64,000 nucleotides of DNA from Limisphaerales bacterium (GCA_965242585.1 OZ251460.1:1090614-1154613); one strand, 5' to 3'; counted from the stretch's first letter, positions 12,486 to 51,838 are shown. Numbers and translations are program-made. Notes: generated from the letters alone by a model not told the origin.

Positions 12486-12514
12486 AAAAAAGTCCAGTCC
12501 TTTGAAAGAACTGG
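12486..12514 (-). terminator. Intrinsic terminator of the 15413/13715 cassette
   Basis: Minus strand reads ccagttctt-tca-aaggactgg followed by actttttt. Confidence 0.55.
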
Positions 12515-12550
12515 CCTTGCTGGTTTGTTTGACAGTTGGATTGCTGTTGC

Positions 12551-13715
12551 CTACTCCGTTGGCAACTCCAACATTGGCGGCGGCGAAGGCGTAATCCTCT
12601 CCAAAATCGCCTCATATTCCTCTGGCGGCGGCAGCCGAACCGTGCCGTCCGTCGCTACCCGCAACGGAATCTCCCCATCTAACTTCTCATCTACTATGGC
12701 CACTTCCATCCCCTCATAATAAGGAACTGGATTGTCATCTACATCAATCAATCTGTCCCCGTGTCCCACAGTGATCGCCTTTCTTTCCGGCTCTGCGCCC
12801 GGCGGATAGCGAATTTCAATGTCTCCCACACGCTCGGCCTCTCGAATGACATACTTTTCATACCAACCCTCATAAGGCACTAGCAGTTCTTCTGTGCCGT
12901 TCATCAAAGCTTGTAACTCTGCTGAACCCCATCGAAGAGTGTTCGAGATCAGATTCGGATGCTCTGGAACCGCTTCCAAAACGCCTTCCACTTCCGCAAT
13001 CAAGCGATCCGCCAGCTTCCAAGCATTCGGCACATTTTCGTCCGAGAGCATTCTTAGATGCATCCACTCTGAACTACATAGCACTGCTGCCAAACTTTCC
13101 CGGTAACCTTTTGGGTGGTTGGTGCCAAGTACATTCTTTCCTCCATTGGCTAGACAATAGTGATGATGCCATAAGTGACCGAAGGCACGAAAGATCAGGT
13201 AAGGATCGTAGTCAAATCCATGTTCCTCTAAGATGCGACAGAAGTCTTCAAACGGCTTGGAGAACCTCCCTTCCCATTGGAAGAATTCCTTCAAAGCCAT
13301 GTGTATTCTTCCCGCGTCTTTGTCCGCCTGTCTTCGATGCTTCCAGCCATGTTCTAGTAGTTGCTTTTCCCGCGTGGTCCTTGGGTAATTCCTACTGCTA
13401 GGTCGAGTAGCGTAGCGCAACATGACTTGTTTCGGGTGGAACCGGTAATCTTTGGCCGGCGTCGGTTTCCAAGGGAAGTTCGCCTTCCAGTTGGCCAAAC
13501 GAATAGCCTCGGTTTGCCCTTCTGCCGTCAATGCCGACCGCCCCCGAATGCGTTGCCATCCTGTATCATTTGATTCTTCAACCTTTTCCGCATTGGGTAG
13601 TGGCGCTTGCCCTTCCACCGCCTCTTGTTCTTCCACAGGCCTCGGCCCTAACAATAACATCCCCCCCCCCAATCACTACCACCCCAAACAAAATGATCCA
13701 ATGTGACCTCTTCAT
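12551..13715 (-). CDS. Membrane-anchored hypothetical partner protein; N-terminus out of frame at a G10 tract
   Basis: RBS ggaggaaaacg and ATG at 13715 give MKRSHWIILFGVVVI. With G9 instead of G10 (C10 at 13661-13670) the frame continues as GGGMLLLGPR into ORF 12551..13672. Confidence 0.7.
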
Positions 13716-13736
13716 CGTTTTCCTCCGTCGTTTCGG

Positions 13737-15413
13737 TTAGCGAGTGGGTATCGTTTCCTCATCATAAAAGATGACTATCCAAGTGTCCACGTAGACTTTC
13801 CTTTCCGTATGGTCCGTGGCTTCGTCATCCGGCGTCTCTGCATCTGGTTTTTCCTTGATGGTGGCATCGTAAGTCTTTCTGTGTTTGCCCCACTTGTATT
13901 TCAGTCCGCCGACGGCTTGCTCGTTTTTGACCACGTGATTGTCCGGGCAGATGTCAATCATCTCCTCTGCGCCGTGTTCCCCAGCGGAAAGATCGACAGT
14001 TTCGCTTATGTTTTTTTCCCAAGGAGCCGAGTAATCCCAGTATCCGAAGCTTCCGGCGGATCCCTTTTTCTTTGCCTGTTCATCGTTTACATACCTCAGC
14101 CTCTTTTTATCAAACTGGACAGCGGCTTTGAACATCAGGCCGTCGCTTTTCGCCTCTCTGCGCAGTGCCGCGCTGATGGATCCGCCGGGATTGTCCGGGT
14201 TGTATAACTCTGTGTAAAGCCTGACTGCCGGATATTCGTATTTCCAAGATGTAGAAGAAGGACTGTTGTCGATGACCGCCTTGCCGCCGCGTATCCAGTC
14301 GCCAACATCCAGAGTGGCGTGGTTGGGATCTCCGTTCATCAAGGCTCCCGCATCGACAATTCTCTGCCATTCTTCTTTTGTGCGGTAAGAGTCCGAGGTG
14401 GAGTAGGAACTTTCCCATTTTTGAACTAGATCACCGTCGTCGTTTGCCTCCACTTTGTCGGACCACTCATAAGTGTAGGCATAGTTCCCGCGTTGATGAT
14501 ATTCGCCTTTTAAACTCTGTGAGTAAGTGGTTTCTCCGCCATTTAGAGGAATCCGTATTACGGGATTATCATGAGTCACATCTTCATCGGCAGGGCCTCC
14601 AGAAGTTCCGTTTGCATTTTGTATTAAGTAAGACACTCTTGGAATTTCGGTCTTTCTGGCGTAGGTTTCTAATTGGGCTCTTGCTCCGATTTTCGGCGTT
14701 GCGTCTCGCGGCATATTGACGTTAATCGTGATGGAAGAGTTGACGGTGCCGTCGTCGTTGACGAATTCGTCGATCATTTGATCTACGGTGTAAACCGTGG
14801 TGCCGCCGGCGATGGTTCCCCAAATGAGCTTCCACAACCTTTTGGCTTTTTCCTTCCATCCTTCGGGGATTTGGATCCTTTTAGCGGTTGACGCTGTGCT
14901 AACTGTGCTGGCCGAGGCGGAGGCGGGGGAAAAGGAGGCTTTGACGCTGTAATAGCCCGTCCCAGAGTTTTGAGAACCAACCTGCAAGCTGTAGCTGTAG
15001 CCAGCGTTCACTTGGTGGCTAATGCGGAAGTTGCGACCTGATCCGCTATTTTCGTCGTAGTCCAAGTATCCGCCGGAGTTGTTCCACAAGTAGCCCCAAG
15101 TGTCGATGTTGCCGGTAGTTTCCATGGTTAGAGTTCCCGGATAGCTCACTTGGAAGTTGTAGAAATGGTAGCCGCTGCCGCGCAAATACGCGCTTTGCGA
15201 TTCTTCCCAAGCTCCCGAAGTTGTGGGAACGGGAAACTGATAGCTTTGGGAGTGCGTTGAGATCGCTCCGCCAAACAGCGGGGCGGCAACGAGGGCGATT
15301 TTCCCCGCTTTGGGAAAAGAGCGGGCCGACTTCTGCGCCAAGGCAGTTTTCTTTTGAGCCGCCGCTGTTGCGACGACGCTAATAATGGTCAACAATGAGG
15401 TTTTGATACTCAT
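13737..15413 (-). CDS. Secreted hypothetical protein: extended signal peptide, PPC-like domain, unknown C-terminal region
   Basis: About 55-aa Ala/Lys-rich leader; PPC-like FQV..PGTLTMETTGNIDTWGYL....LDYDENSGSGRNFRI. Confidence 0.7.
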   Translation of the reverse strand: MSIKTSLLTIISVVATAAAQKKTALAQKSARSFPKAGKIALVAAPLFGGAISTHSQSYQFPVPTTSGAWEESQSAYLRGSGYHFYNFQVSYPGTLTMETTGNIDTWGYLWNNSGGYLDYDENSGSGRNFRISHQVNAGYSYSLQVGSQNSGTGYYSVKASFSPASASASTVSTASTAKRIQIPEGWKEKAKRLWKLIWGTIAGGTTVYTVDQMIDEFVNDDGTVNSSITINVNMPRDATPKIGARAQLETYARKTEIPRVSYLIQNANGTSGGPADEDVTHDNPVIRIPLNGGETTYSQSLKGEYHQRGNYAYTYEWSDKVEANDDGDLVQKWESSYSTSDSYRTKEEWQRIVDAGALMNGDPNHATLDVGDWIRGGKAVIDNSPSSTSWKYEYPAVRLYTELYNPDNPGGSISAALRREAKSDGLMFKAAVQFDKKRLRYVNDEQAKKKGSAGSFGYWDYSAPWEKNISETVDLSAGEHGAEEMIDICPDNHVVKNEQAVGGLKYKWGKHRKTYDATIKEKPDAETPDDEATDHTERKVYVDTWIVIFYDEETIPTR

Positions 15414-15472
15414 AGCCGATGTCCTTTATGTGTACTGTTTGGTGTCTTTTCTTGCAAATAAAGTTTTCCGGC

Positions 15473-15653
15473 AACCGCCGAGCAGACACGCAATCTCCAC
15501 GGCACCAAGCCATTACAAGACACCGAGCAGTTCGATAACACGAAGGGTTCCGCTTTGTTTATCCGAAACACTGAAAGGATCAATTCTCGGCGCCATTCGG
15601 GCTATTCTATTTAGCGAGTAACCCGATTTAACGGGCCGCTCGGCGACTTGTTA
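15473..15653 (-). ncRNA. Putative structured 5' leader RNA
   Basis: Enclosing 13-bp stem agtcgccgagcgg/ctgctcggcggtt (15636-15648 with 15473-15485); inner hairpins tcgggtta/tagcccga and gcgccgag/ctcggtgt; deviations are G.U on the minus strand. Confidence 0.5.
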
Positions 15654-15658
15654 AAGAC

Positions 15659-15687
15659 AATCTGCCAGAAACTAAATCGAGATGCAG
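15659..15687 (-). promoter_or_regulatory. Putative promoter CTGCAT-N17-CAGATT with upstream A-tracts
   Basis: Same GGCAGATTG -10 context as the 3869 promoter; the predicted TSS falls at the start of the leader stem. Confidence 0.4.
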
Positions 15688-15773
15688 GCGTTTTTTCGTC
15701 TTTTTGATTTTTCTTGGGGGCGAAGATTTTGTGGAATGCTTTGAAAAAAAATCGCTTTTTGAACGAAGAAGAG

Positions 15774-16904
15774 TTAGGCGGGCCAAGCGCGGTTGAGAAA
15801 GCGAATCCAGTTTTTAGAGAGAATGTTTTCGGTGTCGGAGTTGGAGTATCCGCGTCGGCGGAGGAGGGAGGCGAGGGTTTGGAGTTTTTCAATGGAGTCC
15901 AGTTCGACGGGGCATTGTTCGGTTCCAAAGCCGCCGTCTAAGTCGCTACCGATGCCGACGTGGTTGACGTTGCCGGCGATTTGGCAGATATGGTCGACGT
16001 GGTTGACGGCGGTTTCGAGGGTGAGAGAGTGTTGTTGGGGAGTTGACTTTCCTGAAATCCAGTCGGGAATCAACATCCGGGCGTCGAGAGCGATTCCGAT
16101 GACGGCGCCGCGTTGGATGAGGAGGCGGATTTGTTGGTCGTTGAGTTGGCGTTGATGCGGTGTGATGGCGCGGCAGTTGGAGTGGCTGGCCCAAACGGGG
16201 CCGTTGAAATGTTCGAGACTTTCTTGAAAGCCTTCGTCTGTGAGGTGAGTGACGTCGAGGATGATTCCCATTTGATCCATTTCGTGCAGGAGGGCTCGCC
16301 CGCGGGCGGTGAGGCCTCCTTTGGCATTCGTGCCGGCGGCGTAAGTTCCCGGTCCATAGTGCGCAAGGCCAATAGCGCGGAGGCCTGAGGCATAGGCTTC
16401 GGCCAAGTAATCCAGATTCACGATTGAATCGGCGCCTTCGAGGCTGAGAAGGTAGCCGATGGGAAGGTCGGGGGTTAGTTTTTCTTCGCCGCAAGCGCTT
16501 TGCAAGTGGGGACGGTTGGTCGACAACCATTGGTGGAGGTGTTCGTGAAGTTGTTTGCGATTGGTGATTTGTCTGAGTTGTCGATCTTTTTCCATTGCGC
16601 GATACCAGCTGAGTTGGGCTTGGGTTTGAGCGTAGGCTTGTTCGGGCGAGAACCAGCCAGAACGGAAATTACCGGGTTGGGCGCATCGGGCAATTTGGGT
16701 AGCCACGCAAAGGCCGATGTTTCCCCGACGCATGGCGGGGAAGCTGACAACTCCTTTTGCGCGATCTTTTTTGTCGTTCATGGAGGTTTCTCTTCGGCGA
16801 ATTTCATCTAGGTCGCAGCGAAGGTCGCGGTTCCATTCCATAGCGTTCATGGACAGATCTAAGTGAGCGTCGAAGAGAAAAGGGTGGGGCGGTCTTTTAT
16901 TCAT
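15774..16904 (-). CDS. Membrane dipeptidase (peptidase M19)
   Basis: FDAHLD, SLEGAD, LDVTHL, ASHSNCR and HVGIGSDLDGG motifs. Confidence 0.9.
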   Translation of the reverse strand: MNKRPPHPFLFDAHLDLSMNAMEWNRDLRCDLDEIRRRETSMNDKKDRAKGVVSFPAMRRGNIGLCVATQIARCAQPGNFRSGWFSPEQAYAQTQAQLSWYRAMEKDRQLRQITNRKQLHEHLHQWLSTNRPHLQSACGEEKLTPDLPIGYLLSLEGADSIVNLDYLAEAYASGLRAIGLAHYGPGTYAAGTNAKGGLTARGRALLHEMDQMGIILDVTHLTDEGFQESLEHFNGPVWASHSNCRAITPHQRQLNDQQIRLLIQRGAVIGIALDARMLIPDWISGKSTPQQHSLTLETAVNHVDHICQIAGNVNHVGIGSDLDGGFGTEQCPVELDSIEKLQTLASLLRRRGYSNSDTENILSKNWIRFLNRAWPA

Positions 16905-16910
16905 AATGAA

Positions 16911-17516
16911 TTAGATGCCGAGTGAGCAGTCTCGCGCTTGGATTAGCCAGCAGTCAATCACTTCGTCGGCGTCGGAGCGGGTAAATGCGTTGTTGTAAGG
17001 CGCTGCGGTCGGGCAAACGTGCCGGGAATGCCGAGGAAGAAGTCTCCGAGAAAACGGTTTTTGGCGAATCGGCTGCGGACGACAAGATGCTCTTCGCTGT
17101 GGCTCTTTATTTCCGCATCGGGCCGAGCGGCAAAAATCACTCTGGGTTGCGGTTTGTCTGCGGAAGCCGCTTTGTATCCGAGGTGGAGACATAGATTTTC
17201 TTCGCTCAAACGACAATGTCGCTACCAACGGCCTGCTTGGCCAAAAGAACGCTGTCGCCTCCGTTTTGGGCGATCATTTCCGCCTCGGCAATTGTGGCGC
17301 ATTTGAACTTGCGAATGCCTCCAAGCATCTGGCGGGCGACGAGAGCCGGGCATTTTTGAGTGTTGCCGGGTGGATGCGGAGGACGAGACGGGGATCCGGC
17401 CAATCGCAACTTGGAGTCGATGTTCTGATCCATAGCGGATTGCCGAAAGAGCAATGCCGGCGACGGGAGTTCGCTGAGACAGGAATAGCGCACAAACGCA
17501 GTTCTTTTTCCGCCAA
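16911..17516 (-). pseudogene. D-threonine-aldolase-family (D-TA) PLP enzyme remnant with internal deletion and frameshifts
   Basis: Three frames give PSPALL..NI..KFKCATIAEAEM..VLLA.Q.VG, then LCLHLGYKA..PRV.F..SHSEEHLVV, then HVCPT..W.I.ARD. The PHxKTHK lysine motif is degraded. Lies between ridA-like and dipeptidase genes. Confidence 0.8.
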
Positions 17517-17517
17517 G

Positions 17518-17982
17518 CTAAGGAACGAGCTCGAAAGTGGATTCGATTTCGACGGAAATTCTTCCGGGAAGAGAGCTCACGCCAACTGCGCTTCGTGTGC
17601 CGACGCCATTGTCGGCGCCAAAGACTTCGGCGAAAAGTTCGCTGCATCCGTTGATCACTTGGGGATGCTCGGCAAAGTCCGCCGCCGCATAAACCATTCC
17701 CAGCAAGTGAATCACTCGCCGAATGCGATTCAAACTGCCGAGCCGGTCTCTAATGGTGGCGAGAATAGCCAAGCCGGCTTGCCGTGCGGCGGCTTTTCCA
17801 AATTCGAGACTCGCCTCGGCGCCTACTTGCCCGGTGAGCAAAGTGCCGTCTGTCTGCAGAGGGCCGTGTCCGGAAACGCGGACGACGTTGCCGACGATGA
17901 GAAGCGGTTTGTAGAGGCCGGCTGGTTGAGAAACCGGAGGCAGTTTCAAGCCAAGCTCGGCGAGTTTTGCTTCTGGATTCAT
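17518..17982 (-). CDS. RidA/YjgF family protein
   Basis: LAELGLKLPP..PAGLY, VSGHGP, HPQVINGCSEL and RSAVGVSSLP motifs. Confidence 0.9.
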   Translation of the reverse strand: MNPEAKLAELGLKLPPVSQPAGLYKPLLIVGNVVRVSGHGPLQTDGTLLTGQVGAEASLEFGKAAARQAGLAILATIRDRLGSLNRIRRVIHLLGMVYAAADFAEHPQVINGCSELFAEVFGADNGVGTRSAVGVSSLPGRISVEIESTFELVP

Positions 17983-18244
17983 GAGAATTTTCTCTCTCGT
18001 TCCGTTTCGTTTAGTGAGACAACAGAAAAGTAGATAACCGCCAACGACAAATCAATCTCCGAAATCGGACTTTCCGCGCCATCGAACCGATTCCAATATC
18101 CACGGGCTTTGAACCTCCAAAATCTCACTCTTTGCAACCGAAGCCACAAACACCGCTTCCGCTCCTCGCTGATATTCAGGCCTGTTTGGTTTGGAAAAAC
18201 GGACGATGCGTTGTGCAGTCAAAGTTGAGAATTCCCCTTTTTGA

Positions 18245-18450
18245 TTGGCATACGGTTTCGCCTTGCTTAACTTCAACAAATTGTTGATGTATCTCGATCT
18301 GGACCCGGAGAAGTCCAACATCCTTGATCATCCGCTGGCAAAACAATTCCTTGGCGAAGCCGAAAAAGAAACGGACAAAAATCAGCAAGGCGATGCTCTG
18401 AATTTAAACGAAGAGCATTCCATTGACGAAACACTCAACATTCATGACAG
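18245..18450 (+). pseudogene. Internal fragment of a DUF4011-helicase (Hhe-like) defence protein
   Basis: ALLNFNKLLMYLDLDPE..NILDHPL.KQFLG...EEHSIDE resembles the DUF4011-to-helicase linker; no start, and the rest of the gene is absent. Confidence 0.55.
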
Positions 18451-18482
18451 TCGGCGGCATAACTGCTGCTGCTGTTGTGGTG

Positions 18483-21400
18483 TTAGCCTTCTTCGGGATT
18501 GTCCCCGCTCTGATGCTCTCTGATCCAAGCGGGCGACAAGTTGAAGCGGGCGATAGTATCCAGAATCCTTTGGGCCGGGTTCTGAATCTTGGAAACTCTC
18601 TCCACACCCTTTGTGGTAGCGTTTTCCACGACATACAGCCAGTAAGCATTCTGCTTCTTCAAGGCAAACCTAAACTGTGTGATTGATAGGGTTACGGAGG
18701 ACAGAGCCCCTGCGCTGGACTTGACTTCGATCCACCGCTTCGGCTGGTCATTCGGACCCGGTTCCCACAAGTCAAACCCAGGATTCCCGTCTTTAGTCCG
18801 ATTCAAGAAACGTTCCTCCTTGAGGTTGAGGATGAACTTGATTGCCGCGTCTTCAACCTCCCTATTGTGCTGGTCGCCATCGCCATATCCATCCCCATTC
18901 CTCCCACCCGAAGACGTGCGTAGGGTGATGCTGATGCTTGGCCTGGGTTGGCTGATTTGCCCGTCGGATTTATTGGGGATCCGGTCAGTCCGGCTCCTTA
19001 CTCCAGTGAGTTCGTCGGTAGCCGGGCGTGGCCCCGTCGAAAAGCCAGTCGGGTTGCCAGCTCCCGGCTCACCAGCCAATTGTCCCGTATAGGAAACATC
19101 ATTGGTGGCCTCGGAATTCTTGAGCAAAAACGCTTTTATCTGAGTCAGAGGAATGTTGCTGTTCTTCTTCAGGAATCCTATAAAGTAATGTAAAGCCTCC
19201 CGGTCAATGCCCTCATTTTCGGCGACTTTGTCAACATCACTCGACAGGAATCCAATTTTCTCGGCAAGGGATGGATTGGCTTCCCACCCGATATCCGCGA
19301 AAGCCACATTTGTCGGTGACTGCAACTCCTGACGGTTCCCATCCGGAACCCACTTGGTCCCGCTCAGCCGTTTAACGAAATTAGCCGGAAACGTTGCGTG
19401 GTTCTCCGAGTAGTAGTGCCAGCTATAGCGGCCTTTGAACGCCGAATCACCCCGGTAGCTCTGGAATTCGCACAAGGCTTTCCACAGCAACTTGGCCCTT
19501 TCAGATGCTTGCTCAAACGGCATTGAGTCCATTTTGTCCAAGAGATCTTTCAAACCCATAAGCGTGTAGTCACGCACAGCGTGATCACGCGTACGTTTCC
19601 CATTACTAACATTGCGCCTGAGCGAGTATTTCTCTTTTTCTGTTAATTCACGTTCCACCCGCTTCCGGGCCAAGCGGTCCGGAGTCCCAGCAGCCGCCAA
19701 TAGGTTATGAGCTTCACCGGGCACAATGTTATCGTCTAACAACAACACGCCAGAAACGCCCTGGAACAAGGCTTTCAAGCTGTCGGTAGGCCAATAAGCC
19801 TCGCCGGGAAGAACGAACTGCCGGACGTTGGTGGCGGCATCTACGGCAATGGTGAACTTGACTTTGCCGATTTCGCCTGCTAGGAGTTGGCGTTGTTCGC
19901 GCGACGCTGATTCATAAGCGTTAAGTGCCTGCGCCAAATCGCCACGATAGACTTCGCAGACTTTGTCAGAGACCAGTACGAGATCCTTGTCGTACTTGGG
20001 CAGGATGTTCCTGATTACATAGTCAACAGGGTCGGGTTCCCTCAGTTTTAGGCTTCGGAGAAACTCCAAAGCCTCATTAGACTGGCACACGCTTGACTTA
20101 ACGGTAGGAAAGCCGGTAGGCGGTGCCTTGCTGGGCAGATATGCTTGTGGCGCGTCGCCATCGAAAGCGACGGTATGGACGCCGGTTTCCAAGCGCACGA
20201 GGGGCGGTGTCACCGGGAGACGCCTTAAAACGCTTTTCTGCCCATTGAAGAATTCATACGAGCGCATTATCCATTCGTCGGGCTGTGCTTCCAGAAATTC
20301 TTGCGTCAAGCGGCGAACTAACCAATCCGGCGTAACTTCGGTTATGACAAGCTGTTTCCTGAGGTAATTACGGATTTCAGGCGTCTGATCGGAGGTGATG
20401 CCGCCACCAATCCACTGGGGGTTGGCGTCTTCCGGGAACAACCCGGCCAGTTGTTCCGGGCCTATCAGCTCCTGCAAGTCGCCGGTTTTGGCCAGCTTGG
20501 CGTTCTTTCCGGCGATATGGCCGCCGCCGTAGGCCGGGAGCAGCTTTTCGTCCAGCAGGGCGTCTTTGACCGCTTGGAACATTTGGGCAAACCGGCCGCC
20601 TTCGTCAAAATCAGGTTCCATTTTCAGCGGCAGCGTCTGTAGCGCAGACGCATTAAGCCAACCGAGTCCGCGCAACTCTCTTAACGATTCGACCAGCAAA
20701 GTTGCGGTTTCTTGGGCAAGATACTGATTCCAACTATCAGGGTGGTTAATGTTTTCCCGGCTTGGCGGGGTGTTGTAGGGGCCATGCATTAAGAACCCAA
20801 GATTGGTTTTCAGCTTCGTCGGGAAGAAAACGAACAACTTTGAATCTGCCACAGAACACACAGACAGGTTTTGGCTGCCAGCGTCGCTATGCTCCAGCAG
20901 GAAAGCAATCTCAACGAAGCCTGCGGGTTTCTCATCTTTCTCAACGGGGCGAGAAAAGACAATCCACTGCTCACCTCCTGCCAAGTCATCACCAGGCCCG
21001 ACTAATCGCACTTGCCGAACATTCAAGGCGTGATGGGACGACACCTTTGAGGGGATGCTCCGGTGTCGCTTGACTGGCCTCCCGTCAACCGACCACGCTA
21101 TTTCTTCAATCTCCCGGAGAAAGAGCAGCGTTCGGGTTGCCATAGTTTGCAACCATTTAAACACTACTTCTTTTGCGGTCTCTCCTTCCACTAAGTCCTT
21201 GTTGAACGGGATGATGATTTGCGTCTCTCCCGTGTTCAAAGCCCTTTCATTTGCTGAGTGGGGGAAAACGAGTGACTCTATCGCGAAATGCTCATCGCCC
21301 GAATGAATTTCCGGCCGGCTGGTGAAATTGTAAACCGACTTGAAGCCGATGCCGAACTGCCCAATGCTGGTCAGCTCTTCCAGCTTAGTGCTTTCTCCAG

Positions 21401-21671: not shown

Positions 21672-21698
21672 AAGCAAGATCCTTTACAAAATTGGTTA

Positions 21699-21715
21699 AT
21701 GCAAACCGTTTGCAT
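21699..21715. promoter_or_regulatory. Perfect palindrome ATGCAAAC-C-GTTTGCAT (operator-like) next to a TGnTATGAT -10 box
   Basis: Seen directly; lies between the putative promoter and the start of the ATPase-DUF3883 gene. Confidence 0.5.
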
Positions 21716-41033: not shown

Positions 41034-41055
41034 TTAGTGGGCCGTCTATGGATCC

Positions 41056-42351: not shown

Positions 42352-43194
42352 ATGAAGCGCCGCTTGGATCAATATCTGTCCGAGGAGGGAATCTGCGCCA
42401 GCCGGGAGAAGGCCAAGCGGGCGATTCTGGCGGGCGCCGTAAGGCTCAACGGACAACGCGCCCGGAAGCCCAGTGACATTGTCAGAGAAACAGATCATGT
42501 CGAACTGATTCCATCCGAACGATACGTCAGCCGGGGAGGGTTTAAGATGGAACATGCGCTCCGATATTTTCAAATCGAAGTCGAAAGTATGACCGCCGTT
42601 GACTTAGGATCTTCTACTGGAGGCTTTACCGATTGCTTGCTACAGCATGGCGCGGCGCGAGTCTATGCCGTCGACGTCGGCAAGGGACAATTAGCGTGGA
42701 AACTGCGTCAAGATTCGCGCGTGCAAATTATGGAAGGAGTTAACGCGCGCTATCTCCAACGATCCCGAATGCCCGCAACGTTTCCGGGAGCCAACCTTGT
42801 TGTCATTGACTGTTCTTTTATCTCACTGACCAAAATACTGCCCGCCATCGTTCCGCTTCTTGTCCCCGCCGGAAAGATTATCGCCCTCGTCAAACCACAG
42901 TTCGAGGCGGGCAGATCAGCTGCGAATCGGGGCCGCGGAGTCATCCGCGATCCGAAAATCCACAAACAAGTGCTTCAAAAAATTCGGCGATTTACCGCCG
43001 ATGAATTGAATCTGCGCTGGATTGGTGTCTGCGAATCTCCTATTTTAAGAGCTTCTGGCAATCGAGAGTTTCTCTGTTTAATCGAAAAGTCTCATGCTCA
43101 AGATTCATCGCATCGGGATCATTGCGAATCCGGGAAAACCCCGTTGGAAGACGAATTTGCGACAAGCGGCGGCGCTGGTTCGCAACGCCGATAG
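42352..43194 (+). CDS. tlyA: TlyA rRNA methyltransferase
   Basis: S4 domain; YVSRGGFK, DLGSSTGGFTD and LVKPQFE motifs. Confidence 0.93.
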   Translation: MKRRLDQYLSEEGICASREKAKRAILAGAVRLNGQRARKPSDIVRETDHVELIPSERYVSRGGFKMEHALRYFQIEVESMTAVDLGSSTGGFTDCLLQHGAARVYAVDVGKGQLAWKLRQDSRVQIMEGVNARYLQRSRMPATFPGANLVVIDCSFISLTKILPAIVPLLVPAGKIIALVKPQFEAGRSAANRGRGVIRDPKIHKQVLQKIRRFTADELNLRWIGVCESPILRASGNREFLCLIEKSHAQDSSHRDHCESGKTPLEDEFATSGGAGSQRR

Positions 43195-43996
43195 AATCGC
43201 CGTTGCTCCTCAACTAGAGCCGTGCGTCGGCTTGAAGAGCCAAACGGACTCAGAAACTCTGTCCGCCGCGGATGCCGCATTTCCCAACTGCATCCAAGGT
43301 ATGGAACAAACAGACCTCATCCTGGTTATCGGAGGCGACGGCACAATGTTGCACGTCGCCCGAACGCTTGGCGGCAGGAAAACCCCGATTCTTGGCATTA
43401 ACACAGGGAATCTCGGATTTCTCACCGCCGCTCCCATGTCGAATCTGCGCGGCATTTTGGAGCGCATTTGGCAGGGCGCCTTCGCCATCGAGACCAGGCC
43501 ATTTCTAGAAGCTGTTCTCTCTAGACCGCGTCCGACAGTTCGCTCCATCGCTCTCAACGATTTTGTCATCAGCCGCAGCGAACTTTCCCGGATGATCCAA
43601 TTGGACGTTTTCGTGGACGGCAAACCGCTAACTACCTATCGATGTGACGGCTTGATTATTTGTTCTCCCACCGGCTCCACTGCTTATTCGCTCTCTGCCG
43701 GCGGTCCCATCGTCAGTCCGAACACGGAAGCCATTGCCTTGACTCCCATCTGCCCGCACGCGCTCTCGAATCGATCCGTCATCGTCCCCCTCAAATCAAC
43801 CGTTCGAGTAGCCGTCGGCACACAGCGCCCCGAAACTCTTCTCACCGGAGACGGACAAGTCTCTCTCACGCTAAAACAAGGGGACGTCATCCAATTTCAG
43901 CAAAGCCGTCGCCGGCTACGTCTTCTTTCAGTGGTTGGCAATGAGTTCTTTCAAACCCTGCGGCAAAAAATGAAATGGAGCGGCTCCAACGTCTAA
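43094..43996 (+). CDS. nadK: NAD kinase
   Basis: GGDGT, GNLGFL, ALND and DGLIICSPTGSTAYSLSAGGP motifs. Confidence 0.95.
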   Translation: MLKIHRIGIIANPGKPRWKTNLRQAAALVRNADRIAVAPQLEPCVGLKSQTDSETLSAADAAFPNCIQGMEQTDLILVIGGDGTMLHVARTLGGRKTPILGINTGNLGFLTAAPMSNLRGILERIWQGAFAIETRPFLEAVLSRPRPTVRSIALNDFVISRSELSRMIQLDVFVDGKPLTTYRCDGLIICSPTGSTAYSLSAGGPIVSPNTEAIALTPICPHALSNRSVIVPLKSTVRVAVGTQRPETLLTGDGQVSLTLKQGDVIQFQQSRRRLRLLSVVGNEFFQTLRQKMKWSGSNV

Positions 43997-44660
43997 AGCG
44001 ATTAAATCACATCCCCACAAACAGCGGCGCTCCCAAAAAGAAGAGAGAACTTGATGAAGAAACCGAGAAAAATCCAGCCAATCCTCTTCAAACAAAAGGA
44101 GATACGGCAAAATTCCTTTTCATCGGTAAAATCACCTCTGATCCCTGAATCCATGACTGACTGCCGAGCCCTAACTAAGCATCCTCAGAATGCTTACGGA
44201 GCATTGAGCCGCCGCCAAACCCCCCAACAAAAACCACCGCTCTCGCTATCCGCCAATCCCCGCCAACCGACTAGACCGGGTTCACGTTTCGATCTGATGC
44301 GGCCAATCCAAAAGAATCGCCAACCCAACAAACCCCAAGAAAATCCCTCTCCACTCCTCAGCAACCACAAAATGCGCCAGCGTAGCAAACCACGCCCACC
44401 CCAGCTTTTTTGCTCACTAGTCCCTCAGCGAATCCGCTCGCCACGCTTGGCCGCTCTCCTCTCAAAAACTTTCTTTTCCGCCACGGCAAAGCAGGATTCT
44501 ACGCTCTTTTGGCAAAGTCAGCAACTTGCGGCCAAGGATTGGCAGCGAGCGGATCTGCTAACGGCCAATGCAAGATGGTGCTCTCTTTCGCTCTTTTTGT
44601 CGTTTTTTGCCGTTGCCAACGAATTTTTCTTAACTTTTTTCATTTTTTTTGATTTTGGGG

Positions 44661-44689
44661 TTGACTCTTTGCGGTGAGGAGGCTAAAAA
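44661..44689 (+). promoter_or_regulatory. Putative sigma70 promoter of the PEP-CTERM gene
   Basis: TTGACT-N17-TAAAAA after T-tracts. Confidence 0.45.
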
Positions 44690-44734
44690 GGAAATCGTTT
44701 ACGTCACCAAAGTCAGAAAATCGATCATTTTTTT

Positions 44735-45560
44735 ATGTTGGAATCTATGAGAACCTTTTCGTTATCATTGGCAAGCGGACAAGCGGGGCTATAATTGTCG
44801 CCTTTTCGCGGCGTTAGTGGTGTCGGCGCTCTCTTTGGTTTCTGGGGAGCAAAGCCAAGCCCAACTTTACCTCCACATCTATCCCAGCCAAGACAACCCC
44901 ACCAGCGAAACCCTCTGGATTTTTAGCGGCTCTTCCACCGCGAGTAGTGCCGGTAGCATCCGAACCTCCTCCTCCAGCGATTCTTTCTCAAGCGGGGACA
45001 GTTGGGGAACTGCGAGCAACAACTTTTTCAACGCCAACAAACCCAACAACGCCAACCTCTCTTTGTCTCCCTTGTTTTCCAGTTCCAACACCAGCGACAT
45101 CGCTTCGGTGAGAGCCCGAATTCCCGGCGGCGGCCGAACCAACATCACCTTTGCCGCCAACGCCACTAATACGCCGACCATCACCATCGGCAGCGGCAGC
45201 CGAACCATTTCCCATCTCTATATGGATGAAAATAGCGGAAACCCTGATAATATGGGGATTCGCGTCTCTGGAAGCGCTTTGTCTTATTCCACTGGGAATG
45301 CTTCGGCTTGGACGGGCGCCGGCATCCTCAACAAACCCATCGGCGACTTCTTTGTGGGAACCTTCAATAACCACGCTAATAGCTTCCTGAATGGCAATTT
45401 TGTGGCAAGCGGCAGTGGCTCGTTGCGGGTTGTCGTCAACAGCCAAGTCATCCCCGAACCGGAAGAATATGCGCTTGTCTTCGGCTTGTTTGCGCTGGGT
45501 TTTGTGTTCTTCCGCCGCTACTTCCAAAAGAAGAAACGCCAACAAACCTCCGCTTCGTAG
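44735..45560 (+). CDS. PEP-CTERM sorting-domain protein (Ser/Asn-rich); probable +1 frameshift in the signal region
   Basis: C-terminus VIPEPEEYALVFGLFALGFVFFRR. ATG 44735 joins ORF 44817..45560 if one base is removed, for example from the G4 at 44785-44788. Confidence 0.8.
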
Positions 45561-46089
45561 TCAACCGCCGGCATTTGCGCTGCGGCAAACCAGTAGCCAG
45601 TGCTCATTAATTCGCGGTCTGTGGCCAAGTGACTTGGGATATTCACAGTTGCGCCAACATCCGTTGTCTACAAACGACGATTGGATTTTTACTTCGCTTC
45701 CATCTTTGCGAAGCGGAGTTTTTATCGCCATGATAAATTCATGGAAACAGAAAGGAAATAGTGGAACGAGGATAAGGAAGGAGCTGTGGATTAGTGGTCT
45801 GAGGATCGGTAGCCAGTGTTCTGCGAGTGTTGCACTGCAAAAACGCTTTTTTCTCCTTGTTTCCTAGAATTTGGAAACGGGATTTTGTTTAGATGGTTAG
45901 TGATACTGGCGGCCTTTTACGCGTTTTCAAAGGCAAGAGAAGAAGAGCAATCAACGTGAATCTCAATTCGCTCTATGCGAGCAGGTTATAAGTTTGATAT
46001 CCCATGTTGAGGGGATGCGTGGAATTCTGGTAAGCGATTCTTCGTAGACAGCATGTTTTGGAGAACGCTCGTGGCCTTACGCTTCCGCA

Positions 46090-46400
46090 AGGGCAAGATT
46101 ACGCTTGCTCCTCAAGTGGTGCGCTGTGGTTGAGAATCCAACCCGGTCTCCGAGAATCCAAACATGCGACCAGCAGTCCGCCGAAGCTCAGCAACCAGCT
46201 GTCCATTCAAGCCGGCTTATACCAAATGCGCACCGGGACACCTCTAGAGAGAAACCTGCCCGATGAGTTCGGCGACTGAAACGCCATCTATCTCCCTTTC
46301 GCCATTGTGCGAAAAGCGCTGTTGTAGAAACGACTCCGGCAGCGGTTCCGGCGCAATCGACAATGAACAACTTCACACGCTATTCACCCAATTGTTGTAT
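46090..46400 (+). mobile_element. Decayed IS5-family transposase N-terminal (DUF4096-like) remnant
   Basis: LW.RI.P...SPPKLS.....LYQMRTGTP..RNLPDEFGD*NAIY matches the RTGxPWRDLPxxFGxWxxxY motif, with W changed to TGA. Confidence 0.7.
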
Positions 46401-47538
46401 AAACTCTTAGGTGTTGATATGCGAGCTGCCTCGGCGCAAGAGGTGTTCCGCGCACTGAGATGTTCGACCCAAGTAAGTTCATTCTCAGTGAAGACAGCCT
46501 ACTCTGGCGCAATGCGCGCTTCACTATGCTCAATGTATGTAGCGCAAATTGCCGTTCTTCCTAGAGTTTTCTGCTACCGGCGGGGGGAGAACAACCATGC
46601 CATGTCAATGTCTGGCGGCGTTGGGAATCGAAGGAGAGTTGTTCTTTCCCAGAGCGGAGCGGAGTGCATGGAGTTATTACGATGCTGGGAAGCGCCCGTT
46701 GCGAATGGCGCGCAATTCCGCTGGGTGCAGGAAGGGAGAGAAACGATTGATTAGAAGGAGGAGGGATGGCCCGAGAGGGTTGAGCGGGTTGTTTCACCAG
46801 GGCAAGAAAGTCTCTTACGAACCCAGTCAAAGAGCTGGGGGTTGGGGGAACTTGTTCGTTTGGCTGGGGCCAAGAAGTTGGAGTGGCATTAGAGAATCGA
46901 GGGAGAATCTCTTATACGAGGGGTTTCTCCTCCAACCATTTCATCGCATCGCCATGCCGTGATAGGATAAATTCTGCGCGGGATAATAGCTCCATTTCCT
47001 CCACAGGACATGACTATTTCCCCCGGAGGTTCTTGGCGTTGGTTCCTCTCGTGGCCATTTGGATTACGACGCAATGATTCACCAATATGGACTAATCAGT
47101 AGGGATTTCGTCCTGTGTCAATTTTGCCAGCGGGTAGTGATTAGCGGCCGTCGACTGGATTTTGACTTGGCTTCGAGATTTCTAAGGCGGTTTTTTTATT
47201 GAGGAATGGTGGAGATGAGAAGGAAAACAGGATGGAATATGGATAAGCAGGATTGCGGAGAAGATGGTGGGACTTTCATCGTTTTTTCCTCTTCTTTATC
47301 TCTTGCCGTTTATGTTCAAAAAACAAAAACTCCAAACCCGCAATTTCTAATTTTGCGCATTGCGTAAACAGCGCTAACCCGCAGTCATAATAAGAACGGA
47401 AAAACTATTTGTTCAAGTAAAGTAAAGATGCTCATCTGCTTTTTGGAGAGAAAAAACGCAGACAAGAATGGCCGAGCCGCTGTGTAATCTGTCGAAGAAA
47501 ACATTGTCAAAAACCGGCAAAACTGTTACTCACGAAGC

Positions 47539-48384
47539 ATGTTGTCGCCGCGCAATTCCACCGCTCTGTGGCAGGAGATTGAGAAACGCTTCTTCCTGAT
47601 CGCCGGACCGTGCGTTATCGAAAGCGAAGCTCTCTGCTTGGATATCGCTGCATTTCTGGCGGAGGCTTGTCGACAACAAGAAATTCGCTGCGTTTTCAAA
47701 GCCAGTTACGACAAAGCCAACCGTTCTTCGGCTAAGTCGTTTCGCGGTCCCGGTTTAGAGGCCGGCCTCGCCGTGCTGGAAACGGTGCGGGCAAAGCACG
47801 GCCTTCCCTTGCTCACGGACGTTCACACCGAGGCTGAAGCCAAAGCGGCCGGCGCCGTCGTCGACATTCTCCAAATTCCCGCTTTTCTTTCCCGACAAAC
47901 CGATCTTCTCCAAGCGGCAGCCGAAACCGGCCGCATTGTAAACGTCAAGAAGGGACAGTTCGCTTCTCCACAGGAGATGAAGAACGTCGCCGACAAATTG
48001 GCCGCCTTCGGCAACCGCCGCTTTTTGTTGACCGAACGAGGCGCCTCCTTCGGCTACCACAACCTTGTGGTCGACATGCGCTCTATCTCAATCATGCAAC
48101 AGTTCGGTTGTCCAGTGGTTTTTGACGCCACCCACTCTGTGCAACTTCCCGGTGTCGGAGGTAGTCAATCCGGCGGGCAACGCGAATTTGCGCCCGTCCT
48201 CGCCAAAGCCGCCGTAGCCGCCGGCGCCGCCGGCATTTTCATGGAAACCCATCCAGAACCCAAAAAGGCACTCAGCGACGGTCCCAACATGATTCCACTT
48301 GACGACCTTCCTGGACTGCTCCGGCAACTGCTGGCCATCCGAAAAGCCATCGAACAAACCCAAAATGAGATTGGCGCTGGATAA
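47539..48384 (+). CDS. kdsA: KDO8P synthase
   Basis: IAGPCVIE, KASYDKANRSS, QIPAFLSRQT and FDATHSVQ motifs. Confidence 0.96.
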   Translation: MLSPRNSTALWQEIEKRFFLIAGPCVIESEALCLDIAAFLAEACRQQEIRCVFKASYDKANRSSAKSFRGPGLEAGLAVLETVRAKHGLPLLTDVHTEAEAKAAGAVVDILQIPAFLSRQTDLLQAAAETGRIVNVKKGQFASPQEMKNVADKLAAFGNRRFLLTERGASFGYHNLVVDMRSISIMQQFGCPVVFDATHSVQLPGVGGSQSGGQREFAPVLAKAAVAAGAAGIFMETHPEPKKALSDGPNMIPLDDLPGLLRQLLAIRKAIEQTQNEIGAG

Positions 48385-48460
48385 TTGGTTCCTCATCCGG
48401 GCCGGCAAAGCGGATTTGCTTGTTTCCCAATCTTTGAATTCTGGTTAAATTGCTCTTCCT

Positions 48461-49027
48461 ATGATGCTTGTCGTCGACAACTACGATTCCTTCACCTACA
48501 ACCTCGTCCAATACCTCGGCGAGATGAAAACAGCCATGACTGTCGTCCGCAACGACGAGATCAACGTCGAGAAAGTTCAAGAACTAAATCCTACCAGAAT
48601 CCTGATCTCTCCCGGCCCTTGCACTCCCAAAGAAGCCGGACAATCCAACAAAATCATCCAAACCTACGCCGGCAAAAGGCCGATTTTAGGCGTCTGCCTC
48701 GGACACCAGTGCATCGCCCACGTCTTTAACGCCAAAGTGCGCGTCAATTACCGCATGATGCACGGCAAAACCTCCCCCATAAAACACAACAACCGAGAAC
48801 TCTTCAAAAACCTTCCCAATCCCTTCACCGCCACGCGCTACCACTCCCTAATCGTGGACCGAAACAACCTGCCGAACTGCTTGGAAATCACCGCCGAAAC
48901 TGAAGAAGGCGAAATCATGGGACTCCGTCATCGCGAACTCCCCCTTTGGGGCGTCCAATTTCATCCCGAAAGCATCCTCACCGAACACGGAAAAGACCTT
49001 CTCAAAAACTTTCTCAGCCTTTGCTAA
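48461..49027 (+). CDS. trpG: Anthranilate/aminodeoxychorismate synthase glutaminase component
   Basis: [21 protein letters not shown] and QFHPES motifs (TrpG/PabA). Confidence 0.92.
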
Positions 49028-49344
49028 AATTGCCGTTCCCACTTTCCCTTCCTTCATCCGCCGCTTGCGGTCCCCACCAATCCACTCTCTTTTCCGCCCT
49101 TCTGCGTCCCGCCAAACAAGGCATCCAAGAAAAATTCTCCCGAGAATCGCCCCGCAAAACTCGTTAAAACCATCACTAAGCCGATACTAAAATCCGTTGC
49201 TGAAGGCTTAAAAACCAAAAACAAATCGCCATCCCGCCGCCGAAAAACGGAGAAAAGTGCGCTTCTGCACCCGAAAAATTCGAGAAAAAATCGCTCAATT
49301 CGTCAAAAAATCGAAAAAAAAGGAAAAAAAGTTGAAAAAAAAGC

Positions 49345-49375
49345 TTGCGCTCAGGGTTGTTTTGGGTTTTATTAA
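49345..49375 (+). promoter_or_regulatory. Putative promoter TTGCGC-N17-TTTATT with strong upstream A-tracts
   Basis: A-tracts at 49305-49342; the predicted TSS at about 49380 coincides with the start of the long stem. Confidence 0.45.
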
Positions 49376-49377
49376 GT

Positions 49378-49536
49378 GCGTAACAAACGTTCGGCGTGGG
49401 GATTCGTCAATCGGGTCTCCCGCTGAATATCACAGTTTATGATCGTGTTTCGGGAGAGTCGAATATTCTCTTTCCTGTTGCCTTCGGCAAACGGGCAGGA
49501 AAAATTTCGCATTCCCATGCTGAACGTTTGTTACGC
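49378..49536 (+). ncRNA. Putative structured ncRNA / 5' leader
   Basis: Uninterrupted 26-bp stem (49378-49403 with 49511-49536, three G.U pairs) encloses hairpins tctcccg/cgggaga and tttcctg/caggaaa with ttgcc/ggcaa. Confidence 0.7.
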
Positions 49537-49617
49537 GGCCTGGACGCGGGAAGAAGTTTCCCCAAGGCGCCGGCCAAAACGCAATAAACGACATAATCAA
49601 ATAAAGAACTCGACGTT

Positions 49618-50736
49618 ATGAGCCAAATAATGCACCCAAATCAGCTTGACGATTCCACCGAATCGGTCAAGGATAGCCCCAACAACGCCATGCAACCTGC
49701 ATCGCAAACAACCGAATCGCCGGCATCGGCCAAGAAAACGCCGCCGCCAAAGCACTTTGGACTGCTCGCCATCCTCGCCATTGGAGTGGCCGCCGCCGCC
49801 GCCTCCTTTTTGAAATCCAAAATGGAGAAAGCGGCGGCCGTTGCCTCTCAAGTTGGCGCCGCCGTGTTGAAGTCCAAGAAAGCGGTCTTCTCTGCGGCCT
49901 CCGCCATCCTCGGCGTCGTCCAACCCAAATCACAAAAGATTGCAGAGAAACGCCTTGCCAAAGGCAAAGCCCGCCTCGCCAGGGCATCCATCCTCGCGCT
50001 CTTGACCGCCTTCTTCGCCGCTAGCTCACAACTAAATGCTTGGATCAATTTGAGATATTTCCCCATTTATGAACGGACAAATCATTCGTATGTATATTCC
50101 GTTTGGCATCCAAACGATCCAATTCCAGAGATAGAGAGCGGCTACTTTTCAATGTACTTTACTGACTGGCTTAATTCACTTCCATTCTATCCGGGACCGT
50201 GGATTATCGCACATGCGTCGGTGTCGACAGATATGCTTGATAGTAGCCGTTTTCGCAGTATGAGCACTACCTATTTTTCCAATGGAAATCGTGACAACCA
50301 CTGTTTCCGACGAAATAGTGTAGGTCGGCTAATTGGTTGGCGATGCAATAATCGAAGTCCTGTTGCTTTGATCAACCACAAAAAAATTGGAAGACATGTA
50401 CTACGAAAGAAAGAAGGCGCAGAAAACCCCGATAAAAACGCAGTGATAACCCGGGATTATGACTTTTCAATCGTTGTTCCAGAAACAGGACCGGGTAGAC
50501 TTGGACCGGATAAATTTCAAGTACAGTTTCAATATCCACGCTATAATGGAGAAAGTCTGCCTCTCCCACCAGTGAGACGTTGTGTGTCACATGAGTTTCC
50601 TGCCTACCCCGGTCCTTTAGTTTTTATTACTCCTTGTATTCCGAGTGACATGAGCTTGCCAGAAAACGGCTACATTGATTACGAAGGCGCTTGCCTTGTT
50701 ATTTTTGCGCCTCCTTCAGATGAAGACGACGAATAA
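49618..50736 (+). CDS. Secreted hypothetical protein with a very long (about 140 aa) N-terminal leader
   Basis: Ala/Lys-rich leader ending ASILALLTAFFAASSQLNA; the mature part is more AT-rich. Confidence 0.7.
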   Translation: MSQIMHPNQLDDSTESVKDSPNNAMQPASQTTESPASAKKTPPPKHFGLLAILAIGVAAAAASFLKSKMEKAAAVASQVGAAVLKSKKAVFSAASAILGVVQPKSQKIAEKRLAKGKARLARASILALLTAFFAASSQLNAWINLRYFPIYERTNHSYVYSVWHPNDPIPEIESGYFSMYFTDWLNSLPFYPGPWIIAHASVSTDMLDSSRFRSMSTTYFSNGNRDNHCFRRNSVGRLIGWRCNNRSPVALINHKKIGRHVLRKKEGAENPDKNAVITRDYDFSIVVPETGPGRLGPDKFQVQFQYPRYNGESLPLPPVRRCVSHEFPAYPGPLVFITPCIPSDMSLPENGYIDYEGACLVIFAPPSDEDDE

Positions 50737-50757
50737 GAAGAAAGAAAAAACTAGACC

Positions 50758-51777
50758 ATGAAAAAGTCAATCCTAATCCTGACCGCCGGCGTTGTTGTGA
50801 TTTCGCTTCTCTTACTGGTTAACGAGAAGTGGATCAAAGAACCCAGCGCGCCGAAGACTGCCGCCAAACAGCAAGAGACGGAACCCGTACAGCAAAGCTC
50901 GCCAACGGTGCAAAAGAAGAAGACGGAGGCCAAGCCGACAAGCAAGCCCCCCGTCTATGATTTGTCAAACAAAACGCACTGGTACGACCCCGAAACAACC
51001 ATCGGCCTTTACGGATCAAGGATACTTGCCAAAGAGATTGAACCTTTCAAACCCACGTCGGAGGAATTCCAGATCATCGCGCAATACGAAACCGCGCGCA
51101 GAAAACTCAAGGAATCTCTTTCCGAAGACGAGTACTACTCTGTGGAAGGAAGAAAACGGCTCATCGATGGAATCCTAGAACTGAATAAGCAACTGCGGGA
51201 AGATCTGGGAGAAGAACGAACCCAATTCTATGCGGAAGTTCGGGACCCTTATACGGGCTATTACAACACTTGGGAAGTATTGAAGGTCAACGGCATTAGC
51301 GAAGAGCGCGTCGCCGAGTTCCGCGAACTAGCGGATGAGTTCAATCGGAAAATGCACGGCAGACCTCTTTACAGGGCGGAAAGGAGGATAGCTTATTACT
51401 CCCCGGCTGATTGGTATTTTTCTTATGACGAGCATAATCAAATAGCCAAAACCTTCCGGGAACGGATTGAAAAAGAGTTTGGAAGACAAGTTCTCGACGA
51501 CATTCTTTCACTCTCACCAGATACGTTTTTTATGGATGATTTGGGTGGCATGACCATGATGATGACTATCGATTTATTGCATGATCCAAGCCAACAAGAG
51601 CGATTGAAGGAGTTGTACGACTACCACGTTGACTTTAGCGAACCTGCTGATGAAGTTGATAAAGAAATAGAAGAATCCAAGCGTTTGGGAAAACTAGAAA
51701 TAAAACTGATTGAGGCATGGGGAGAAAAATACGGCGGTTCAATTTCTAGGGAACCACCAATCGGCTGGATTCCCTGA
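50758..51777 (+). CDS. Membrane-anchored helical hypothetical partner protein
   Basis: MKKSILILTAGVVVISLLLL anchor, Pro/Lys linker, helical body (FKPTSEEF, LREDLGEER). Confidence 0.75.
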   Translation: MKKSILILTAGVVVISLLLLVNEKWIKEPSAPKTAAKQQETEPVQQSSPTVQKKKTEAKPTSKPPVYDLSNKTHWYDPETTIGLYGSRILAKEIEPFKPTSEEFQIIAQYETARRKLKESLSEDEYYSVEGRKRLIDGILELNKQLREDLGEERTQFYAEVRDPYTGYYNTWEVLKVNGISEERVAEFRELADEFNRKMHGRPLYRAERRIAYYSPADWYFSYDEHNQIAKTFRERIEKEFGRQVLDDILSLSPDTFFMDDLGGMTMMMTIDLLHDPSQQERLKELYDYHVDFSEPADEVDKEIEESKRLGKLEIKLIEAWGEKYGGSISREPPIGWIP

Positions 51778-51806
51778 AAAGTTTGTTTTTGCCGTTTACC
51801 TATTCC

Positions 51807-51838
51807 AAACCGTCGGGTTTTTGCCCGGCGGTTTTTTT
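51807..51838 (+). terminator. Intrinsic terminator
   Basis: ccgtcggg-tttttg-cccggcgg followed by T7. Confidence 0.8.

Follow-up and report, generated by a model that had tools for sequence, protein, structure and literature searches.

Two gene pairs in the genome of an uncultivated Limisphaerales bacterium look as though they had been built to one plan, which raises the question of whether they belong together and, if so, what they belong to. The window analysed here is a 64-kb stretch of that genome (64,000 nucleotides (nt) of GCA_965242585.1, OZ251460.1:1090614-1154613); the genome itself, of ~4.53 Mb, is called G000, and positions are those of the window unless marked G000 or L. Cassette A lies on the minus strand (15687 to 12486) and cassette B on the plus strand (49345 to 51838), each consisting of a leader, a gene for an exported protein and a gene for a membrane-anchored partner. 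The original prediction, made from the sequence alone, had described them as two copies of a recurring cassette; both are present where it placed them and share the layout it gave, but its count was short by more than an order of magnitude. The scan of the genome and its relatives that it had proposed found dozens of further cassettes of the same layout, and because these exist, the absence of such cassettes, which it had named as the outcome that would speak against it, does not apply.

Cassettes A and B belong to a family that numbers dozens of two-gene units. The evidence supports this unit, a leader RNA with an exported variable protein and a membrane-anchored partner, as an undescribed and recurring one, and no account of it was found in the literature on Limisphaerales with sponges or as symbionts. 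In order, a unit comprises an A-rich promoter-like block, a structured 5' leader, a gene that evolves fast and encodes an exported or membrane protein without a known domain, and a single-pass, N-terminally anchored partner; the partners come from several unrelated families, called here A, B and prepilin/DUF1559. On balance we lean towards regarding the units as a multi-gene system of one Limisphaerales genus subclade, in which two-gene operons of a variable exported protein and an anchored partner, headed by a shared structured leader, make up a variable envelope repertoire.

The leader RNA of cassette B and its genomic copies

The features of cassette B are as follows.

49270..49342, plus strand: A-rich tract upstream of the cassette (direct reading; A-rich tracts are kept in a 36-copy alignment; UP-element-like, with a putative function)
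49343..49374, plus strand: promoter-like block (TTGCGC at 49345-49350, 17-nt spacer, TTTATT at 49368-49373), ending 4 nt before the leader stem
49378..49541, plus strand: leader-B RNA domain, ~165 nt, a 26-bp closing stem (P1) around conserved hairpins (142.4 bits with covariance model R1)
49536..49577, plus strand: GC-rich hairpin after P1 (single-sequence fold; present in part of the copies only and replaced in many of the 36)
49618..50736, plus strand: first gene B (P0003, 372 aa), a conserved N-terminal module and then a variable Cys-containing body
50737..50757, plus strand: spacer of 21 nt (the gap in the ortholog in the related genome G151 is also 21 nt)
50758..51777, plus strand: partner B (P0004, 339 aa), an N-terminal membrane anchor and an all-helical domain; member of a 5-copy family
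51807..51844, plus strand: intrinsic-terminator-like hairpin of 12 pairs with a T-run (hairpin and T-run at 51807..51834)

The 418 nt upstream of P0003 have dozens of genomic matches at 68-81% identity, and a profile of the leader finds 56 genomic copies (nhmmer, E <= 1e-3). An alignment of 36 of these shows a constant order: an A-rich tract, the promoter-like block, a variable stretch, a conserved core of ~110 nt, a second variable stretch and, in part, the GC-rich hairpin. The promoter-like block is kept across all 36 copies; its hexamers were read by eye and a consensus scan did not list them, so that the promoter is putative. The two variable stretches that flank the core are complementary to each other in each copy, which gives the leader its design, a long closing stem of copy-specific sequence around a conserved hairpin core. 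The original prediction of a folded leader holds firmly for cassette B, whose predicted fold of -100 kcal/mol is far better than that of shuffled sequences (z = -6.28; 0 of 200 shuffles as good). The match of model R1 to cassette B (142.4 bits, E 2e-33, 49378-49541) is there by construction, because this copy sat in the seed alignment; independent support for the family comes from the 55 other genomic copies. No Rfam 15 model matches anywhere in the window at gathering scores, and relaxed Rfam searches of both leaders returned chance-level matches only, to eukaryotic long non-coding RNA and small nucleolar RNA models.

Covariation was assessed on about 50 leader-B copies (48 distinct sequences) from five genomes, aligned to R1. 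In this set 84.2% of the cells that should pair do so, while shuffled sequences reach 71.5% and slid controls 41-44%, and 263 cells are changed on both sides compared with 98 in shuffles, a number that none of 500 shuffles reaches. The core of P1 shows compensatory change in 12 of its 14 pairs, with 90.5% of cells pairing, and the inner hairpins covary as well. Cognate P1 arms pair with a mean of -25.1 kcal/mol and non-cognate arms with -12.3, the own arm being the best partner in 21 of 33 copies. Since G-U cells far outnumber A-C cells in P1 (125 to 33), the structure belongs to the RNA of the gene's strand, and the claim that the leader is an RNA is thus borne out by covariation with a sense-strand signature. 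We considered and rejected a coding leader: some copies are open in frame with the first gene, but the window copy contains stops and the core contains indels that are not multiples of three.

One segment of the core, GGGAGAG, has two possible pairing partners, UCUCCC upstream and CUUUCCC downstream, and either pairing is kept in ~90% of cells; these alternative pairings would be compatible with a switch, without amounting to proof of one. One leader-B copy (locus L063, G000:C1:2180576-2180592) carries a C17 homopolymer in the 5' strand of a conserved inner helix, a possible slippage site in the RNA element. Its exceptionally clean covariation and its natural variants, more than 50 to a genome, make leader B a ready subject for structure probing and for a search for binding partners.

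Cassette A, the partner families and the first genes

Cassette A has a leader of its own, and its features are these.

15507..15658, minus strand: leader-A RNA domain, a long closing stem around hairpins (RNAalifold on 6 copies; R1 match at 15507-15655)
15414..15506, minus strand: leader-A 3' module, which includes a hairpin with three covarying pairs and is 82-91% identical to 11 other loci
13737..15413, minus strand: first gene A (P0001, 558 aa), with a short N-terminal hydrophobic segment at residues 5-19
13716..13736, minus strand: spacer of 21 nt containing GGAGG (the gap in the G151 ortholog is also 21 nt)
13671..13715, minus strand: start of partner A (ATG at 13715) and the part coding for its membrane anchor, out of frame with the rest; a twin copy elsewhere reads through
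13661..13670, minus strand: G10 tract that breaks the partner A frame
12551..13672, minus strand: body of partner A (P0002, a 373-aa open reading frame (ORF)), in a frame other than that of the anchor part
12494..12514, minus strand: terminator-like hairpin

The terminators foreseen for both cassettes are thus seen, as a hairpin with a T-run after B and as a terminator-like hairpin after A. The folded leader foreseen for cassette A is upheld in that its fold is better than that of shuffled sequences, but only modestly so (z = -2.37, with 3 of 200 shuffles as good). Like leader B, leader A is a multi-copy element, and a modular one, with four matches in this genome, seven and five in two congeners, and five partial matches in a third. 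RNAalifold on six copies gives a closing stem at approximately 15658..15509 around hairpins, together with a 3' hairpin that has three covarying pairs. With filters off, R1 matches leader A at 22.5 bits (a rough E of 4.2e-4 over 40 kb), second only to cassette B and followed by a next match of 13.1 bits. The borders of this match agree with those from RNAalifold, which were found independently, the aligned leader A shows the same order of motifs around the stem, and five of eight further leader-A loci are matched by R1 at 20-24 bits. On this sequence comparison leader A is probably, if not provably, a distant relative of leader B.

What stands behind the leaders is more diverse than a two-copy cassette would suggest. 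Iterated hidden Markov model (HMM) searches of the 24,507 ORFs of the genome gave 79 ORFs of partner family A, 31 of them of at least 320 aa and many of them fragments, and five of family B; the four paralogs of partner B in the genome are 65, 65, 60 and 34% identical to it. The two families are unrelated by profile-profile comparison (hhalign probability 1.7%). Most full-length partners lie 12-36 nt downstream of a variable gene that has the same orientation and codes for 270-560 aa, and leader B is found within 3 kb upstream of 18 of the 31 full-length A partners and of four of the five B partners. Viewed from the leader, the 56 copies of leader B are followed by an A-type partner in 17 cases, a B-type partner in 4, a prepilin-type gene in 7, other ORFs in 14, and nothing or only short ORFs in the remaining 14. 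Six of the prepilin-type second-gene proteins match Pfam N_methyl, three of which also reach the DUF1559 cut-off while a fourth falls below it; neither N_methyl nor DUF1559 matches P0002, P0004 or P0005. Five identical 166-aa fragments of family A (G000:C1:874939-875439, 969864-970364, 1874260-1874760, 3050348-3050848 and 4454446-4454946) share the same neighbouring fragments and probably lie inside a repeated, possibly mobile, element.

By hydropathy each partner has one N-terminal hydrophobic segment. AlphaFold2 models (mean predicted local distance difference test score, pLDDT, 72) predict a helical domain with a small beta C-terminal part for partner A and an all-helical domain for partner B, so that the single N-terminal helix and helical domain of Lif pairs would be present in the models, as a generic feature. 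The fold searches that the original prediction had called for brought no informative match for either partner: Foldseek against the PDB gave none at E <= 0.001, and in the VIA wide search the best Z was 6.6 for partner A (74 residues, root-mean-square deviation 2.7) and 6.1 for partner B, in the noise range for helical models. Public collections hold 81 relatives of a central member of family A, 17 of the window-type A member and 67 of partner B, none with a Pfam domain or a name, and the relatives of the system proteins come from metagenome-assembled genomes of Limisphaerales bacteria, in keeping with the Verrucomicrobiota named in the original prediction. Among 1.84 billion cluster representatives the family-A profile reaches 287 (97 at E <= 1e-30), and none of twelve more distant representatives reaches a Pfam cut-off.

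Several of the sequence resemblances first noted between the two cassettes can be set against the genomic background, here the 6039 ORFs of at least 150 aa. The likeness of the partner N-termini is above it, as G[VI]VVI occurs within the first 40 residues in only five of these ORFs, namely four B partners and the in-frame twin of partner A, the other A partners having different anchors. The shared PP near the partner C-terminus is chance: 7.6% of all ORFs have it, and it occurs in 2 of the 31 partners of family A and in 1 of the 5 of family B. The spacer of exactly 21 nt is real in both cassettes and in their G151 orthologs, but it falls within the family range of 12-36 nt and the two spacers are unrelated in sequence. 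The C-terminal echo Y[VI]D..[IL]VIF between the first-gene products occurs in these two ORFs alone, a count that is post hoc because the pattern was built from those two sequences, and BLASTP does not find the echo significant. Between P0001 and P0003, whose bodies had been called otherwise unrelated, BLASTP gives no significant match; comparing A with B, the best E is 0.23 for the first genes and 0.15 for the partners.

The first genes likewise have no known domain. A conserved module occupies residues 1-145 of P0003: after a hydrophilic start come one hydrophobic segment (44-67), a helix rich in Ala and Lys, and a weaker hydrophobic segment (120-137). In relatives this module is joined to different bodies. 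Pfam has no family for P0001, P0003 or 38 further first-gene proteins (0 of 40), NCBIfam has none for P0001, P0003 or the two window partners, and the library scans found no toxin, lipase, Lif or trafficking domain in the four window proteins or the 38 further first-gene proteins. The body of P0003 has no usable match in the ESM Atlas, and residues 70-156 of P0001 give a weak lead there (0.85) to pre-peptidase C-terminal (PPC) domains. The same residues (window 15206-14946, minus strand) also resemble a portion of another ORF of this genome, 1161 aa in length (E 7.5e-10).

Distribution, recombination and the poly-G tract

Leader B has a narrow distribution. Of 151 genomes sampled across the order 2 carry it, and among 21 relatives, this genome included, 5 do, with 55-56 copies in G000, 56 in G151, 59 in G158, 20 in G110 and 8 in G155. 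Within the genus 4 of 10 other genomes have it, and the searches of other genera brought no match.

In 12 of 33 leader copies the own 3' arm is not the best partner of the 5' arm, although in one of these a near-identical paralog makes the only difference. Recombination does take place within the core, since at least three copies carry an arm of another copy (two a foreign 5' arm and one a foreign 3' arm). Strong concerted evolution was considered and set aside: core identity within G000 is 0.72, not above that between G000 and G151 or G158 (0.76-0.77), and a small within-genome excess is seen in G110 only. The units also differ in position between genomes. In this genome cassette B occupies the slot ahead of dapF; in G158 the slot is filled by a different unit and in G152 it is empty, and the G151 ortholog of cassette B lies at another chromosomal place. 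The gene in the G158 slot (L212 2-406) encodes a protein whose C-terminus is like that of family-A partners. Divergence is about two times faster in first genes than in partners (for example, 0.32 versus 0.66 identity), and in the two it is correlated (r = 0.70, 241 comparisons of 27 pairs).

Partner A had been taken to be a single ORF, which does not hold: the anchor frame is broken by the G10 tract and the 373-aa body lies in another frame. Elsewhere in the genome there is a twin, identical from shortly past the start codon, that has G12, is in frame and lies behind an unrelated gene. In contigs from public runs the depth of the partner gene is twice that of the first gene, and the collapsed two-copy contig of one run has two extra bases at the G tract; a contig of another study has G10 and spans the first gene into the partner, and thus the G10 state is no assembly slip. 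The G151 ortholog of partner A has a short G run and is intact. Partner A has in this one mark of a slipped-strand contingency gene, an in-ORF homopolymer that sets the frame and whose length differs between copies and relatives. Poly-G switching as a family-wide feature is, by contrast, ruled out: the genome has 148 G/C runs of at least 8 (up to 24, with only 12 A/T runs of 10 or more), and 3 of these lie in cassette space.

Two further observations concern these loci. The gene upstream of the in-frame twin (G000:C1:367558-368841, minus strand) encodes a 427-aa protein with a partner-like N-terminal anchor, so that partners may stand in tandem at the twin locus, with no first gene. In the G151 ortholog of cassette A (L217 302-1976) the first gene is split into ORFs of 121 and 480 aa in different frames while the partner is intact, the reverse of the situation in the window.

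A proposed variable envelope repertoire and its rivals

We suggest that the units encode a diversified repertoire of cell-envelope or surface proteins, in which the partner would anchor, assemble or escort the product of the first gene. Such a repertoire would arise by duplication, with recombination at the shared leader and N-terminal modules, and its units would be swapped at fixed chromosomal slots. Expression of partner A may be toggled by slippage of the poly-G tract, in which case the window copy would be in the OFF frame. Judged by its position only, the leader may exert RNA control over the units, acting on the mRNA in cis by way of 5'-end stability, of RNase III-type processing or of one shared factor that binds the conserved core; action in cis would place all units under common post-transcriptional control. 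A bolder version, to which we give little credence, makes the leader a new class of cis-regulatory RNA that places ~60 variable envelope-protein operons under a single trans-acting factor bound to the core, with GGGAGAG as a switch, the locus-specific closing stem as a gate for processing or stability, and mismatched arms, left by recombination in the core, as an on/off layer that chooses which units are expressed.

Several points weigh against a variable envelope repertoire under a shared leader. The system proteins tested have no known domain or informative fold match (Pfam, NCBIfam and fold searches), and because of this the words 'envelope or surface repertoire' draw on hydropathy, variability and copy number alone. 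No recognised partner stands behind 28 of the 56 leader-B copies. The link between leaders A and B is weak (20-24 bits, rough E-values, three of eight leader-A loci unmatched at E <= 0.05), and RNAalifold gives leader A no net covariation support, because its copies are few and similar. The lengths of the G tract come from contigs, which cannot show variation within one locus and in which partner A is a collapsed two-copy repeat, and with 3 of 148 G/C runs in the cassettes' 4% of the genome, poly-G switching is no property of the family. Finally, the transcription start and the effect of the leader on the mRNA are both presumed.

The original prediction had favoured an effector with its immunity protein or a lipase-Lif pair, and neither finds support: no such domains were detected, the partner folds are uninformative and partners A and B are not one family. 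The partner is, moreover, the conserved member of the pair, the first gene being variable, and an identical partner A stands behind an unrelated gene. In a polymorphic toxin system the first gene would encode an exported variable toxin, the anchored partner would confer immunity in the periplasm, and the copies and fragments would be an arsenal with orphan modules. That would suit the variable first gene followed after 12-36 nt by a partner gene, a family rich in fragments and pseudogene-like pieces, the in-frame copy of partner A that lacks its first gene, the presence of different units at one chromosomal slot in different genomes, and the predominant co-divergence of the two genes (r = 0.70), although co-divergence is expected of tandem duplicates anyway. 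We nevertheless think it unlikely, since Pfam recognises none of the 40 first-gene proteins and NCBIfam none of the four window proteins, and there is therefore no toxin, Rhs, contact-dependent inhibition (CDI), T6 or T7 trafficking domain, a toxin of unknown fold being still conceivable; moreover, the partner is better conserved than the first gene, where immunity genes typically show the opposite, prepilin/DUF1559 partners are not immunity-like, and a window partner A that is out of frame beside an intact first gene would mean self-harm if the toxin acted on its producer, which speaks mildly against it. If the partner were instead a Lif-like foldase or export chaperone, it would serve as a steric chaperone that folds or releases the first-gene product in the periplasm. 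The predicted single anchor followed by a largely helical soluble domain would fit, the short spacers suggest coupled synthesis and the pair is inherited as a unit, but neither Pfam nor NCBIfam gives a Lif or lipase match, the best fold scores (Z 6.6 across 74 residues with partner A, 6.1 with partner B) are those of noise for helical models, units of one kind are served by at least three unrelated partner families, and an identical partner occurs without the first gene; this role, too, seems to us improbable.

It is also conceivable that cassettes A and B are unrelated operons whose shared layout is a coincidence of the generic bacterial operon plan. Their first genes and partners have no significant sequence similarity, their spacers are unrelated, the PP motif is background and the match of R1 to leader A reaches only 22.5 bits. 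Yet leader B stands ahead of both A-type (17) and B-type (4) partners, R1 finds leader A at independently derived borders and matches 5 of 8 further leader-A loci, and the five ORFs in 6039 that carry the G[VI]VVI anchor motif are all partners of families A and B, which makes coincidence quite doubtful. We regard as very improbable the idea that the leader acts as DNA and not as RNA, as an invertible promoter segment, a recombination site or a small mobile insertion. A conserved core of ~110 bp between inverted repeats of ~25 bp, with chimeric copies that show recombination inside the core, might be read in that sense, but the inverted repeats differ from copy to copy, unlike the sites of a shared recombinase, the excess of G-U over A-C in P1 (125 versus 33) favours a sense-strand RNA, BLAST and HMM matches extending past the core run collinearly with both the upstream block and the gene, a flipped core was not observed, and the inner hairpins covary too.

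Set beside known systems, a variable envelope repertoire finds partial parallels. The opa and pilC contingency families of Neisseria likewise have many scattered copies with conserved 5' regions and recombination between copies, and a homopolymer in the part coding for a signal or anchor sets the frame, as G10 versus G12 does here in partner A; in the units described here, however, the repeat tract is exceptional (3 of 148), the genes form two-gene operons and the shared 5' element is a covarying RNA structure, and no host or antigenic role is known. The leaders of rnc and pnp and the 5' untranslated region of ompA, which are RNase III sites or 5' stabilisers, resemble leader B in that the presumed transcript opens with a stem of 20-26 bp that is perfect or nearly so; in leader B this stem surrounds a conserved core of ~110 nt with invariant loops, the element recurs more than 50 times per genome, and cleavage or stabilisation is putative. 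CDI and Rhs polymorphic toxin-immunity systems likewise place a small partner gene after that of a variable exported protein and have orphans and fragments among their copies, but the searches here detected neither a trafficking nor a toxin domain, the partner is more conserved than the first gene, and pseudopilin-like families are included among the partners. Prepilin-type and DUF1559 proteins (PF07963, PF07596) supply the second gene after 7 of the 56 copies of leader B and begin with one hydrophobic helix, as partners A and B do, while the latter two, as found in the window, match neither N_methyl nor DUF1559.

Some 4% of the genome consists of units whose parts are absent from the libraries searched, an RNA without an Rfam family and protein families without a Pfam family or informative fold. 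If the units are a variable surface repertoire, they would show how envelope diversification and its regulation can be arranged in an uncultivated bacterium without the repeat-based switches known from pathogens; if they are toxin-immunity pairs, they would constitute a new secretion-linked arsenal. The bacterium may be host-associated. In public runs labelled 'sponge metagenome', 0.05-0.26 of the sampled words are present, from which we claim no habitat.

Both cassettes sit among housekeeping genes, as had been noted, with metabolic genes as neighbours: an aldo/keto reductase and an M19 dipeptidase for cassette A, and DAHP_synth_1, GATase and DapF for cassette B. Directly upstream of dapF there is, in addition, an ORF of 152 aa (52025-52483, plus strand) with a signal-like start and no Pfam family, which is conserved at the same place in G158 and G152.

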